The notes under the pieces were generated by a model, which was given only the letters and a program-made list of their open reading frames with translations, made no database searches and was not told where the DNA came from. From sequence record PV841870.1: a DNA stretch of 44,696 bases, one strand, 5' to 3'. This document shows, piece after piece, positions 30,730 to 35,194 of this stretch. Position numbers and translations under genes: made by a program. Numbering within the stretch: position 1 is the stretch's first letter; each line of letters begins with the position of its first letter. Source of the DNA: Escherichia phage Pandora71.

Positions 30730-31215
30730 TCAACGACTAAGATATTCAAGGAGTTCTCCTTCGCTCATTATTTCAATTCGTGCGCTGCCGCTGGGCGGCG
30801 CTTCGTCAAAGATTATCAACTGCTGGCACTTGTTATTGCTCGGCCCGACTTCACCGGTTACAGCGTGTATAAATCGGATACGCCAGTCCAGAAGAATTAT
30901 CAGGTTTGCAGTCTTCCGGGCTAACCGCGCCCACTTTGTCGACGTGTCCTGATTCAGTAGCATGACGGTCCGGCGTCCGTGCGCTGCGCACTCCACCCAC
31001 GGCAGCGGATCGGAATACGGCGGATTGCACCACTTCCACCCTTTCAACTCCGCCCAGTCCGCATCAAGCGCGCTATGTTCTGCCGTGAAGTAACGCGGTA
31101 GCAGATGGTTGGCGTCGCTTGCCGCCATATCGTAACGGAATCGGAACTTACGGCGCAGCGGTTTAAATAAAGCTGGCGGCGTGCGCCAGCTATCTTTCTG
31201 CTCACTCTTCTGCAT
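30730..31215 (-). CDS. DNA N6-adenine methyltransferase (phage Dam-like)
   Basis: NPPY motif (CNPPYSD) and N-terminal WRTPP segment; 161 aa. Confidence 0.8.
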   Translation of the reverse strand: MQKSEQKDSWRTPPALFKPLRRKFRFRYDMAASDANHLLPRYFTAEHSALDADWAELKGWKWCNPPYSDPLPWVECAAHGRRTVMLLNQDTSTKWARLARKTANLIILLDWRIRFIHAVTGEVGPSNNKCQQLIIFDEAPPSGSARIEIMSEGELLEYLSR

Positions 31216-31660
31216 AGTCTGGATCTATCGCATATAGGGCGGTTTTCTTGCCGCTGGATAGCACGCGTTGGACTCTGGATATCTCCTCCTTACTGAGCGG
31301 TCGGCTATCGGAATAGTAGCTGCCGTTTGCACGCCACGCGATACGCACCAGTCCTTTCCGCGGGATCGAAGACTGGTTACCCTTCGGGCGCACGTATTCC
31401 TCGGCCCGTTTGCAATGCTCGCGCAGACCTTCGGCAGTGATGCGGTTTAGCGCAACGCTGGTTGTGTATCCGGTGCGCTGCATAATCCCCATCAATTCGA
31501 AAAGCAGTTCGAAGCGCTCCTCTAGCTCCTGGCGCACTTTCTTCTCGCCTTCATATAGCGCCTGTTTGGTGTCCGCCAACGCGTTCGCACGTTCGGCCTG
31601 TTCGCGGGCTTCGAGGCATTGCGCGGCCCAGTATGCTTTTTCTTCTTGTAAAATTTTCAT
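31202..31660 (-). CDS. hypothetical protein (152 aa, coiled-coil N-terminus)
   Basis: GGAG RBS; coupled to downstream methyltransferase. Confidence 0.5.
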   Translation of the reverse strand: MKILQEEKAYWAAQCLEAREQAERANALADTKQALYEGEKKVRQELEERFELLFELMGIMQRTGYTTSVALNRITAEGLREHCKRAEEYVRPKGNQSSIPRKGLVRIAWRANGSYYSDSRPLSKEEISRVQRVLSSGKKTALYAIDPDYAEE

Positions 31661-31903
31661 TTATTTAATCTCCGTAGTGCGAATCTCTTTGCGTGGAATA
31701 AATTTGCCATCCATCTCCACCCAGCAGACTCCGTATCGCCATTGGGTATTACGTCCCGTTTGCTCGGCATATACGGTCTTGCATCCGTAGCGTTCCGTGT
31801 AGTAAATAGCAGCGGTAGGAACGCAAATACAAACGGCAAACATGAGGGTGAGGATCACCCAAAATCGAAGGTCGCCGTCGTAGTCGAAAAATAATGATTT
31901 CAT
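31661..31903 (-). CDS. hypothetical small membrane protein
   Basis: ATG 31903 with GGAGA RBS; hydrophobic helix. Confidence 0.5.
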   Translation of the reverse strand: MKSLFFDYDGDLRFWVILTLMFAVCICVPTAAIYYTERYGCKTVYAEQTGRNTQWRYGVCWVEMDGKFIPRKEIRTTEIK

Positions 31904-31949
31904 CGTGTTGTCTCCAGGTATTAAAAAGGGCGTCCAACCGGACACCCTT

Positions 31950-31978
31950 AAGATAATGCAACCAATCTAATTATGCAA
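31950..31978 (-). promoter_or_regulatory. putative sigma70-type promoter (TTGCAT-N17-TATCTT)
   Basis: tandem TTGGTTGCA motifs; followed by hairpin GGGTGTCC/GGACGCCC plus T-run in the leader. Confidence 0.4.
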
Positions 31979-31983
31979 CCAAT

Positions 31984-32307
31984 TTACGAATAAAAATTTG
32001 GGTCGCGTGCAACGTCTACCAGATACAGATTGCTCATGCGGTTGCCGTAGTGCCCTGGAGTGCGCTGGCGGCACACAACGGCGAAGCCTGGGGGAATTGT
32101 ATTGCCGGTCGCGATAATCCACGCCACGCGTGCACCCGATAGAGTTTTGCCGTTGCATTCGATGCGCGTGCCGCCATCGGCAGTGTTAAGGTTGCCAATT
32201 TTGCAGCCGGTGGACTTCAGACGAATGACGCCGGTTTTGCTGTCGTAGGAGAATAACTGGTTAGTCATTGCAACCGAAAAATCAATGGCTTCGAATGTAG
32301 TATTCAT
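31984..32307 (-). CDS. hypothetical protein, possibly degenerate HNH-like
   Basis: spacing pattern of Gly/Asn residues (ECNGKT...GNTIPPG...GNRMSNLYLV) loosely resembles HNH_3-type endonucleases; catalytic His not obvious. Confidence 0.4.
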   Translation of the reverse strand: MNTTFEAIDFSVAMTNQLFSYDSKTGVIRLKSTGCKIGNLNTADGGTRIECNGKTLSGARVAWIIATGNTIPPGFAVVCRQRTPGHYGNRMSNLYLVDVARDPNFYS

Positions 32308-33014: not shown

Positions 33015-34435
33015 TTGCGCGCCTTTTTAGCTTTCATGTATTCCATCAAGTCGTCCTGTATATCTCGCTTACTGTCGCGACGCTCGGCGACCAGTTCGTC
33101 CAGTGTTCCGCGCGCCTGGATAATGTAGACGAATACCGGTCGAGGGTGTCCGGCCTGCATCTGGCGAACCGGCCCGATACGTTCAACGATCTGCGAAAAG
33201 TGCTCAAAGTTCCAGGTATCGGAGAAGATTGCCAGGTGATGTCCGCCATCCTGCAAGTTGAGGCCGTGGCCCGCCGATGCCGGGTGTGCAAACATGATGG
33301 GGATCTCGCCCCTGTTCCACGCTTCCATATCCTTATTGCCCTGCTTACCTTTACCCAACGCAACGCCGTGCGGAAATTTCTTCTTAAGACGTGCCAGGTC
33401 ATGCTTATACTGATACGCAACGAGCAACGGCGCGCCGTTCAACTCCTCCACGATACTTTCCAGCGCGTCCAGCTTCGCGTCGTGAATCTTCACCCACTCG
33501 TCGGTCCGTTCGCCGTCTTCGTCCACCTTATACACAGCGCCGGATGCAAGCTGAAGGCACTTAATTGTCTTCGACGCGGCGTTCGCCGCCTCCACTGTTC
33601 CGCTTTCCAGTTCTGCAAATAGCTCGCTTTCAAACTGGTCATAAATCTTGCGGGCTTTCTTCGGCAGGTCCACGACAACCGGCGTATAGATTGGTTTGTC
33701 GCACCCGAAGTATTCAGCCGCGTCAACGGTTAGGGATACATCCGACAGACGTTGTTGTATCTCTTTCTCGGAGTTCTTTAGCGGAGCGTGCTGCATAGTG
33801 AAGCTGCCAGGCTTAACAGGCTTGCTAATGAACCAGCGATCGGTAAATGCCTTATAGCTACTGCCGAGGCGTTCACCGCCGTCGACAAACCACGTCTGAC
33901 CCCATAAGTCTTTCAAGCCGTTTGGCGCGGGTGTGCCGGTCAGGTTAATCCAGCGCTTGACGTGCTTATGTGCGATTGCCGCCAGTGCGCGGGCGCGCTT
34001 GCTCCCCTGCTTGCTACGATAGCCTTTCAGCTTAGTCGATTCATCGGCAACAACTACCGTGAAGGGCCACGCATCTCCGTAATAGTCAACCAGCCACTCA
34101 ACCACATCGTAGTTAACACAAACCACGTTAGCGTCGCTCTCCAGCGCGGCTATGCGGTCTTTTTCTGATCCTGTGCCGTCTACCACCAGCAAGGCGGGGA
34201 ATCGCCATTTTTCTTGCTCCGGGGGCCACGTACCGGACGCAACGCGCAGCGGGGCCAGCACCAGTACGCGGTCCTCATGGTTGGACAGGATGCCGGTCTG
34301 GAACATTTTATTCAGCGCCCACATGGTCGCGCCAGTTTTACCCGACCCCATTGTCGCCCATATATTGCATCGCTTATGCTTGAGGATGAACGCGGTTATC
34401 AGCTTCTGATATTCACGGCGTCGGAATCGTGCCAT
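33011..34435 (-). CDS. SNF2/DEAD-like superfamily 2 helicase
   Basis: Walker A GSGKTG, DEAD-like VVADEST, helicase C-terminal region; ATG 34435 preferred over GTG 34471. Confidence 0.85.
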   Translation of the reverse strand: MARFRRREYQKLITAFILKHKRCNIWATMGSGKTGATMWALNKMFQTGILSNHEDRVLVLAPLRVASGTWPPEQEKWRFPALLVVDGTGSEKDRIAALESDANVVCVNYDVVEWLVDYYGDAWPFTVVVADESTKLKGYRSKQGSKRARALAAIAHKHVKRWINLTGTPAPNGLKDLWGQTWFVDGGERLGSSYKAFTDRWFISKPVKPGSFTMQHAPLKNSEKEIQQRLSDVSLTVDAAEYFGCDKPIYTPVVVDLPKKARKIYDQFESELFAELESGTVEAANAASKTIKCLQLASGAVYKVDEDGERTDEWVKIHDAKLDALESIVEELNGAPLLVAYQYKHDLARLKKKFPHGVALGKGKQGNKDMEAWNRGEIPIMFAHPASAGHGLNLQDGGHHLAIFSDTWNFEHFSQIVERIGPVRQMQAGHPRPVFVYIIQARGTLDELVAERRDSKRDIQDDLMEYMKAKKARK

Positions 34436-34439
34436 ATCT

Positions 34440-34658
34440 TTATTCTGCCTTTTTCCAGACTTCTGTCTCACTGTTCCAGTTCCTTTTTGTGGCGTCGTAG
34501 TTGGTGGCGTGTCCGATGTGCACGCCGGTCGCCCGGAAGCTCTTAAATTTTTGCCAGCACACCGTTAACGGCAGCGGGTTATTCATGCCCGAGATAAACC
34601 ATACTCGATCGCCTGGTTTGCATTCGCCCAGTGTGGTTAGTCGGTAGTGTTCTTTCAT
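34440..34658 (-). CDS. hypothetical protein (72 aa)
   Basis: ATG 34658 with GGGAGA RBS. Confidence 0.45.
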   Translation of the reverse strand: MKEHYRLTTLGECKPGDRVWFISGMNNPLPLTVCWQKFKSFRATGVHIGHATNYDATKRNWNSETEVWKKAE

Positions 34659-34701
34659 CGTCATGTCTCCCAAAAATGGCGGGACAAGCCCGCCGTATTA
34701 A

Positions 34702-34875
34702 TTATGCTTGCGCGGCACGGTAGCGGCGCTGCCGTTCACGCTCTTTTTTATTTCGGCACGATTTGCACTCGGCCCGATACCCGTCGGGGCTGCGCGCGGT
34801 TTTGCCGGTGTATTTGTGGAACTGTGATAGCGGTTTAACACAACCGCAATTACTGCAACGTTTTTCTTCAACCAT
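34702..34875 (-). CDS. small Cys4 zinc-ribbon protein with basic tail (57 aa)
   Basis: CSNCGC ... CKSC plus Arg/Lys-rich C-terminus; ATG 34875 with GAGGA RBS. Confidence 0.45.
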   Translation of the reverse strand: MVEEKRCSNCGCVKPLSQFHKYTGKTARSPDGYRAECKSCRNKKERERQRRYRAAQA

Positions 34876-34915
34876 TTCTAAAATCCTCGATAGGGCTAAC
34901 CGGCCCACTATACTG

Positions 34916-35194
34916 CTACGCGACCAATTCAGCAACCAATAAATCACAGTCGTCTATGTTGTCGATGACGCGAACGTCCGCACCGCGGCGGGCCATTCGC
35001 TCATGTTCTCGTACCTGGTGCGGCTTAGGTTTACCGCCGGGGCGCTTCACTTCGACGAAAACTATCTTGCCGTTGATGATGATTATCAGGTCGGGCGCTC
35101 CTGCGCGCCCCTCCCATGCCACTTTACGGCAGAATCCTCCGACGGCTTTCACCAGCTTCATAAGGTGACTTTGAATCTTGCCTTCTGGTGTCAT
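34916..35194 (-). CDS. VRR-NUC domain nuclease
   Basis: GAPDLIIIINGKIVFVEVKRPGG core (D...EVK) typical of VRR-NUC; ATG 35194. Confidence 0.75.
   Translation of the reverse strand: MTPEGKIQSHLMKLVKAVGGFCRKVAWEGRAGAPDLIIIINGKIVFVEVKRPGGKPKPHQVREHERMARRGADVRVIDNIDDCDLLVAELVA

Follow-up and report, generated by a model that had tools for sequence, protein, structure and literature searches.

Two orphan DNA methyltransferases in the replication operon of a Dhillonvirus coliphage

What purpose would a phage have for two DNA methyltransferases, one for adenine and one for cytosine, embedded among its replication genes? The question is raised by Escherichia phage Pandora71 (sequence record PV841870.1; the window, that is, the whole stretch of DNA analyzed, is 44,696 nucleotides long), in which an original prediction, made from the letters alone, placed two orphan methyltransferases with several nucleases in a replication block at 30730-35194 and proposed an anti-restriction role. 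The best explanation runs as follows: the replication and DNA-metabolism operon of Dhillonvirus would make both methyltransferases together with a polymerase and a helicase; nascent phage DNA would thus be methylated during replication at the sites of both enzymes; the Dam enzyme would yield N6-methyladenine, at GATC as for the Dam of phage T1, and a minimal Dcm-like enzyme would yield 5-methylcytosine (5mC), at or within CCWGG. The benefit would be site-specific protection from enzymes that cut unmethylated GATC or CCWGG (DpnII/MboI-type, EcoRII-type); a documented cost comes from some retrons, which sense such methylases, as Ec86/Eco1 senses the Dcm-like enzyme; and a VRR-NUC nuclease and an SNF2 helicase would be the usual replication and recombination partners. 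Taken jointly with a canonical mechanism for the Dcm-like enzyme, in which Cys (PC) and Glu (ENx) would act with S-adenosylmethionine (SAM) to make 5mC, this account as a whole is very probably right. Family, fold, motif integrity and synteny come from the present analysis, and the formation of 5mC from a relative 53% identical; the anti-restriction role is plausible, and we infer it, as we do the target sequences.

The whole stretch is an essentially complete genome of a known kind, that of a Dhillonvirus (HK578-like) coliphage, the relatives being siphoviruses of 43-46 kb. When positions 30000-35300 were compared with phage genomes by megablast, 162 records matched, 149 of them over 80% or more of the query; the top relatives, Escherichia phages bov22_1, welsh, KS_S9 and EK99P-1, all of the genus Dhillonvirus, have about 92% DNA identity, and identity at this level extends across 100% of the region in many Dhillonvirus genomes with an equal annotated gene set. 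Related annotations give the order polymerase, VRR-NUC or ‘resolvase’, small open reading frames (ORFs), helicase, methylase, ‘putative HNH endonuclease’, small ORFs, Dam, small ORF, phosphatase; the methylase is labeled ‘C-5 cytosine-specific DNA methylase’ or ‘hypothetical protein’. As at least 149 phage records preserve the block over its full length, and as it is placed beside polymerase and helicase, its genes are real, not chance ORFs.

All the genes named in the original prediction are present, and all genes of the block lie on the minus strand in the same direction. The block adjoins the SNF2 helicase and stands between the tail-fibre genes and a gene for a DNA polymerase I-family polymerase (35199-37490; phrog_17, E=4.5e-130), annotated as DNA polymerase in relatives and serving here as the marker of the replication module; a Gp2.5-like single-stranded DNA-binding protein, an exonuclease and a primase-helicase are encoded in the further surroundings, and the term ‘replication block’ was well chosen. 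Overlaps of 4-20 nt join helicase and methylase, methylase and HNH-like gene, a 152-aa ORF and Dam, and Dam and a small ORF; with the shared direction, these argue for one operon, the genes of which probably share a transcript and, in part, are coupled in translation. The epithet ‘orphan’ fits as well, in that no partner restriction endonuclease can be seen. Such a gene set is already familiar and annotated in a phage genus that has been well sampled, and the observation, while correct, is ordinary.

A short C5-cytosine methyltransferase and its relatives

The gene at 32304-33014 encodes a protein of 236 aa, the short ‘Dcm-like’ C5-cytosine DNA methyltransferase, which matches phrog_757 (‘DNA methyltransferase’) with E=3e-84 across residues 2-234. 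Homologues are abundant. A word-indexed search found 2873, of which the best 120 are mostly about 226-250 aa long; an exhaustive profile search found 1913 representative clusters, 835 of them at E<=1e-10, and the best 150 of the 1913 are nearly all 210-260 aa, bar shorter fragments. The gene was located by tblastn in 1511 phage genomes, in groups that include Dhillonvirus, Drexlerviridae, Vequintavirinae, RB49-like myoviruses, and siphoviruses of Salmonella and Klebsiella. By comparison of these sequences, a length of 236 aa is the norm for a large clade and not a truncated oddity.

In C5-methyltransferases the Glu of motif VI protonates N3. Conservation of this and other motifs was judged on an alignment of 27 diverse homologues, all of which share motif I (F12-D-G14-S15-G16, the SAM-binding FxGxG), motif IV (P82-P83-C84-T85, with the catalytic Cys), motif VI (E130-N131-P132, with the Glu) and a motif IX-like R219-S-L-T-P-R-G. 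The acidic residue of motif II is apparently replaced by Asn33, and no clear motif X (GNxV) was found, the chain ending about 10 residues past R-S-L-T-P-R-G. Residues 142-178 form a conserved insertion specific to the clade. Where a target-recognition domain would be expected, between a strand at 179-184 and the conserved C-terminal helices, there are some 20 poorly conserved residues (about 185-207), of which 185-205 were modeled with a predicted local distance difference test score (pLDDT) of 71-79. Among the 27 relatives, 15 match PF00145 at E<=1, the best with E=1.3e-6.

The AlphaFold model of the protein as a whole has a pLDDT of 90.7 and a predicted template modeling score of 0.89, and Foldseek places it closest to DNMT3A/B (E about 5e-7); by predicted fold, the protein is a C5-methyltransferase of DNMT3-like form. 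Together with the phrog_757 match, this bears out the C5-cytosine methyltransferase-like protein of the original prediction. Compared with canonical PF00145 enzymes (M.HhaI, E. coli Dcm, the catalytic domains of DNMT3A/B), it has the same motifs I (FxGxG), IV (PC) and VI (ENx), a motif-IX-like R-x-L-T-P-R, and identical residues for covalent catalysis. It differs in length (M.HhaI has 327 aa and Dcm 472 aa, some 90-240 residues more), in having about 20 residues for the target-recognition domain, no clear motif X and an insertion of its own, and in falling below detection by the Pfam PF00145 model.

A separate observation concerns the neighborhood of methylase and helicase. In BFVD, segment _1 of A0A6J5SE15 (entry A0A6J5SE15_1; a protein of 1397 aa from an uncultured Caudovirales phage, labeled ‘Helicase/UvrB, N-terminal’) matches the methylase fold with a Foldseek E of 8.5e-10. 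This model match suggests that methylase-helicase fusions exist, echoing the adjacency of the helicase at 33011-34435.

For the activity of the clade, one can turn to experiments on phage K42, a strain of KarlJaspers/Bas06. Mutants of K42 that escape retron Ec86 disrupt a 711-bp ‘dcm’ gene; expression of K42 Dcm raises 5mC in Ec86 multicopy single-stranded DNA (msDNA), as seen by liquid chromatography-mass spectrometry, and activates the retron; the C82A/E128A/K175A/K176A protein does neither; alteration of CCTGG in the msDNA abolishes Ec86 defense; and 34 of 35 Ec86-sensitive phages encode Dcm (bioRxiv 10.1101/2023.08.16.553469). The KarlJaspers gene (MZ501090 bas06_0055) is likewise 711 bp and encodes 236 aa, with C82 in FPPCTDL, E128 in MIENP and K175-K176 in YFKKTC. 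The window protein is 53% identical to its product; C82, E128, K175 and K176 align to C84, E130, K177 and L178.

The two proteins thus compared belong to the same clade, are identical in FPPCTDL and MIENP, share a DNMT3-like predicted fold, and are encoded in an early or replication region near a helicase. They differ in origin (Drexlerviridae for K42, Dhillonvirus here), in the second Lys, which is Leu in the window protein, and in the motif VIII-IX loop, which is of another subtype; the experiments concern the K42 protein only. Because this 53%-identical relative makes 5mC and needs C82, E128, K175 and K176 as a group, the short Dcm-like family is taken to be active, and by homology the activity of the window enzyme is largely answered. 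The original prediction had described the protein as short for its family, with specificity or activity open: the length turns out to be typical, the question of activity is mostly settled by the relative, and only the reservation about specificity stands.

This has a practical consequence. The 236-aa gene, a ‘hypothetical protein’ in many Dhillonvirus records and overlooked in Klebsiella phage KP36, can now carry the annotation ‘short Dcm-like C5-methyltransferase’, which predicts that Dhillonvirus phages deposit 5mC and may trigger defenses of the retron Ec86 type. Interest then shifts to which sequence the short clade recognizes, and to the way in which an enzyme of this small size can read it: a matter of modest enzymology, not of a new biological system.

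Dam, target sites and the case for protection

The adenine enzyme is the more conventional of the pair. The gene at 30730-31215 encodes a phage Dam-family N6-adenine DNA methyltransferase of 161 aa, which matches PF05869 with E=1.3e-35 (123 bits against a cutoff of 28.1, over profile positions 5-146 of 169) and phrog_111 with E=2.5e-55. Against the NCBIfam equivalog model TIGR01712 it scores 87 bits, under the cutoff of 97.05, and is thus a family member, not a certified equivalog; sequence search detected no solved structure for the phage Dam family. The protein shares 30% identity with T1 Dam (E=3e-16), and its D29-M-A-A-S33 and N64-P-P-Y67 are in register with the T1 motifs. T1 Dam is GATC-specific, and the Dam enzymes of HP1 and VT-2 are related PF05869 methylases.

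Both the T1 and the window enzyme consist of a PF05869 domain with DxAAS and NPPY motifs, are small, lack a separate recognition domain, and are orphans encoded in a DNA-metabolism region of the phage; the window Dam is 76 residues shorter, besides its limited identity and sub-cutoff TIGR01712 score. To judge by its sequence, this Dam is an unremarkable representative of the small phage Dam family, as the original prediction of a Dam-like enzyme at this place had it. With T1 Dam as the model, its product is most likely N6-methyladenine and its target GATC. Missing catalytic residues were named in that prediction as something that would speak against methylation; in fact the residues are present in both enzymes, NPPY aligning with T1 in the one and C84 and E130 being invariant in the other.

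Site counts over 1-44696 bear on what such methylation might protect. Under a maximal-order Markov model, CCWGG occurs 154 times with 153 expected (observed/expected 1.01) and GATC 175 times with 209 expected (0.84); neither is avoided. Dinucleotide shuffles gave a 2.2-fold excess of CCWGG (154 versus 69), which was rejected as a signal: since the Markov ratio is 1.01, the excess reflects CWG and codon usage. Many 6-bp palindromes are strongly avoided (observed/expected counts: AAGCTT 0/15.3, GCCGGC 0/21.5, GGGCCC 0/13.9, GCATGC 0/10, CACGTG 0/9, ATGCAT 0/8.5, GGCGCC 1/18.8, TCCGGA 1/14.6, CTGCAG 1/11), and CTAG occurs 19 times with 55.9 expected. Site avoidance looks like the main passive anti-restriction strategy of this phage.

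A number of points weigh against the account of two active, protective methylases; they concern, in turn, the enzyme, its target and its benefit. The 236-aa protein itself has no sequence match in Pfam (E up to 10, PF00145 included), NCBIfam or PDB, either as a single sequence or as a 27-sequence profile, so that its assignment as a C5-methyltransferase rests on motifs, relatives and fold, and the caution in the original prediction was reasonable on this account. Only three of the four residues mutated in K42 are kept; the position of K176, Leu178 here, is variable across the family as well. One could then suppose a pseudo-enzyme, or an enzyme with another substrate or cofactor (tRNA, like DNMT2; carboxy-SAM, like the C5-carboxymethyltransferase 8yf3), and the missing database matches, the lack of an obvious motif X and the apparent Asn33 in motif II would suit such a view. 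Its probability is nevertheless very low: the catalytic Cys, the Glu and the SAM-binding glycine motif are invariant in the 27 homologues; the 53%-identical relative forms 5mC in DNA in vivo, in dependence on those residues; DNMT3B and DNMT3A outscore both 8yf3 and DNMT2 in the comparison of predicted folds; and the annotations inspected for related regions list no CmoA-like gene.

The target is the softer part of the account. Orthology with E. coli Dcm was tried and rejected: hhalign of the family profile aligned motif IV alone, with E=0.17, and for this reason ‘Dcm-like’ is a functional label, from which CCWGG cannot be transferred by homology. For the K42 enzyme too, CCWGG was assumed from the analogy with E. 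coli Dcm and from the msDNA mutants, not mapped (bioRxiv 10.1101/2023.08.16.553469). The DNA of KP36, with 155 CCWGG sites, resisted EcoRII; the authors reported no cytosine methyltransferase and credited the resistance to host Dcm (PMC3620542). KP36 does carry a member of the short clade (NC_029099, gp74, 230 aa, 47552-48244 on the minus strand), 44% identical to the window protein, and the resistance is confounded all the same, as host Dcm could explain it. Finally, the loop at the recognition position (about 185-207) varies more than any other part of the family and falls into at least two subtypes, GYSKQ in the window protein (GYSKQ-YSR) and DNPGW in K42 (DKDNPGWAK in KarlJaspers).

The target of the window enzyme is still probably at or within CCWGG. 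One may hold instead that the enzyme is active and that its target in Dhillonvirus is another, such as a shorter motif of CC or CNG type, with a role different from EcoRII-type protection. The difference in loop subtype speaks for this, as do the loop's length of about 20 residues, which recalls the very small loops that serve recognition in DNMT3 (the closest fold), and the want of a genome-wide map for K42. The proposal is unlikely, even so, given that the insertion at 142-178 and the C-terminal basic motif, which are possible recognition parts, are common to both subtypes, that CCWGG is not avoided in a genome where many 6-bp palindromes are, and that KP36 DNA resists EcoRII. A more particular version, in which the minimal enzyme would read a target other than CCWGG through the clade-specific insertion and the variable 20-residue loop, with no canonical target-recognition domain, is slightly more doubtful again; if it were true, the short clade would be a compact family of phage methylases with swappable specificity.

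As to benefit, none of the restriction systems tested in BASEL is known to target GATC or CCWGG. Phages of Dhillonvirus were relatively sensitive to the type I-III systems that were tested there (PMC8594841). This does not contradict the account: it is compatible with protection specific to GATC and CCWGG, but no broad protection was seen. Apart from the retron work on K42 and the digests of KP36 DNA, a literature search for methylomes or restriction digests of Dhillonvirus or the short clade found nothing direct. In Shigella phage 1b, also a Dhillonvirus (OR420686.2, 2489-2674), the Dcm-like gene is cut to 186 nt, encoding 61 aa of the C-terminal part only, and the remnant sits between an intact helicase gene and the HNH-like gene; shortened variants (148-195 aa) also occur among close metagenomic relatives. 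Because Shigella phage 1b keeps only 61 codons and K42 escapers lose the gene, the Dcm-like gene is dispensable, and its loss may occur under retron-type selection.

These observations can also be read to mean that the methylases are not primarily anti-restriction and serve phage DNA metabolism, for example in marking DNA once replicated so that MutH or Vsr does not process it, in the timing of packaging or transcription, or in countering other methylation-sensitive defenses. Both genes do belong to the replication operon, where they overlap the helicase gene and accessory genes; an E. coli host itself methylates GATC, and usually CCWGG as well, and extra protection would be needed only if replication outruns the host enzymes or in dcm- hosts; and restriction resistance in Dhillonvirus is, as noted, not marked. 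No direct evidence was found for any such role, however, and the dispensability of the Dcm-like gene, in nature and in K42 escapers, fits an accessory, defense-related function better than a core one. A role in DNA metabolism thus has some claim, as a minority possibility, and site-specific protection is the reading carried forward here.

The HNH-like gene and the other neighbors

Could the methylase be half of a pair? The start of the HNH-like gene (31984-32307, 107 aa) overlaps the stop of the methylase gene by 4 nt, and in Vequintavirus EmilHeitz the gene after a homologous methylase encodes an intact homing endonuclease of HNH type. Both facts would suit a restriction-modification or homing pair. 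The protein itself does not: it matches phrog_99 weakly (E=2.5e-15) and nothing in Pfam, even at E<=10. In an alignment with HNH_3-type homing endonucleases (T1 ST63 and ST8, EmilHeitz bas49_0075), every Dhillonvirus homologue has VVCRQ in place of the ‘DH’ dyad; only ‘NR..NL.LV’ survives, and the protein lacks the C-terminal half that would bind DNA. An AlphaFold model, made from an alignment of five near-identical sequences, was unusable (pLDDT 41.8).

Homologues of this protein were found only in contigs of Dhillonvirus size, at 79-99% identity; the gene is taken to be confined to Dhillonvirus, and Drexlerviridae have the methylase without it. With the catalytic His and Asp and the DNA-binding half gone, and the gene restricted to one lineage, restriction-modification pairing of methylase and HNH-like gene was rejected; a functional pair of either kind is highly improbable. 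The degenerate, shortened HNH_3-like protein is probably not a nuclease. The best reading of its sequence is a decayed remnant of a free-standing homing endonuclease, because the dyad and the C-terminal half are lost and homologous methylases elsewhere precede intact homing endonucleases. The ‘possible degenerate HNH-like protein’ of the original prediction was therefore aptly named, and its ‘several nucleases’ overstated: within 30730-35194 only the VRR-NUC protein has an intact nuclease site.

That protein, a VRR-NUC (PD-(D/E)xK) nuclease of 92 aa at 34916-35194, matches PF08774 with E=6.7e-6 (26.6 bits against a cutoff of 23.8) and phrog_93 with E=8e-32; its PD...ExK residues, read from the sequence, are G-A-P-D35 and V-E48-V-K50. 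It had been correctly identified, and by these motifs it is the sole credible nuclease in the interval. Its putative substrates are branched DNA or Holliday junctions. The SNF2-family helicase at 33011-34435 (474 aa, counted from the ATG used in related records; PF00176, E=2.3e-11; phrog_62, E=2e-156) is annotated as ‘helicase’ in welsh and EK99P-1, and the last 4 nt of its gene are shared with the start of the methylase gene. The VRR-NUC and SNF2-helicase modules of T1-like and Jersey-like siphophages likewise combine, in the replication block, a VRR-NUC nuclease whose site is intact with a neighboring helicase, and T1-like phage KP36 has the same helicase, VRR-NUC and Dam arrangement; the window differs in that two small ORFs lie between nuclease and helicase.

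The first of these, at 34440-34658, encodes a conserved protein of 72 aa (phrog_9291, E=2.8e-46) with no Pfam match. The second, at 34702-34875, encodes a CxxC...CxxC zinc-ribbon protein of 57 aa, annotated in EK99P-1 as a ‘Lar-like restriction alleviation protein’. Its matches to phrog_5558 (Lar-like, E=1.3e-18) and phrog_1035 (endonuclease VII, E=4.7e-12) cover the zinc-ribbon part only; all Pfam zinc-ribbon matches are sub-threshold and no nuclease motif is visible. Were it truly Lar-like, the block would hold a third anti-restriction element.

Between the HNH-like gene and Dam lie two more genes. The conserved small protein of 80 aa at 31661-31903 is placed by a phrog_18961 match (E=2e-52) that begins at Met15 of a longer ORF, and the same 243-nt gene is annotated in welsh. 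The 152-aa protein at 31202-31660 is called ‘DNA ligase’ in some records, including phrog_10530 (E=4e-92) and EK99P-1; neither Pfam nor NCBIfam supports the label, which is probably a propagated annotation error, the protein being far too small for a ligase.

Beyond Dam, a small conserved ORF of 69 aa at 30540-30749 (phrog_10685, E=4.5e-35) starts with TTG where welsh has ATG; a 2-nt indel near its 3′ end alters the C-terminus and also removes a 4-nt overlap with the phosphatase gene. The phosphatase of the original prediction does exist, although at 30056-30526 it stands just outside 30730-35194. This HAD-superfamily protein of 156 aa (phrog_415, E=1.7e-37) has the DxDxV motif at residues 7-11 (D7-L-D9-G-V11), scores 22.9 bits against PF03767, under the cutoff of 27, and is likewise under the cutoffs of the TIGR HAD models; it is weakly similar to the T1 ‘polynucleotide kinase’ ST64 (E=6e-4). 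From its sequence it resembles the phosphatase domain of T4 polynucleotide kinase or a nucleotidase, and is best called a putative phosphatase.

Farther off, at 41659-41988 on the plus strand and directly upstream of the primase-helicase, an ORF of 109 aa matches phrog_9366, ‘transposase’, with E=5e-63, an odd label for the replication module of a lytic siphovirus.

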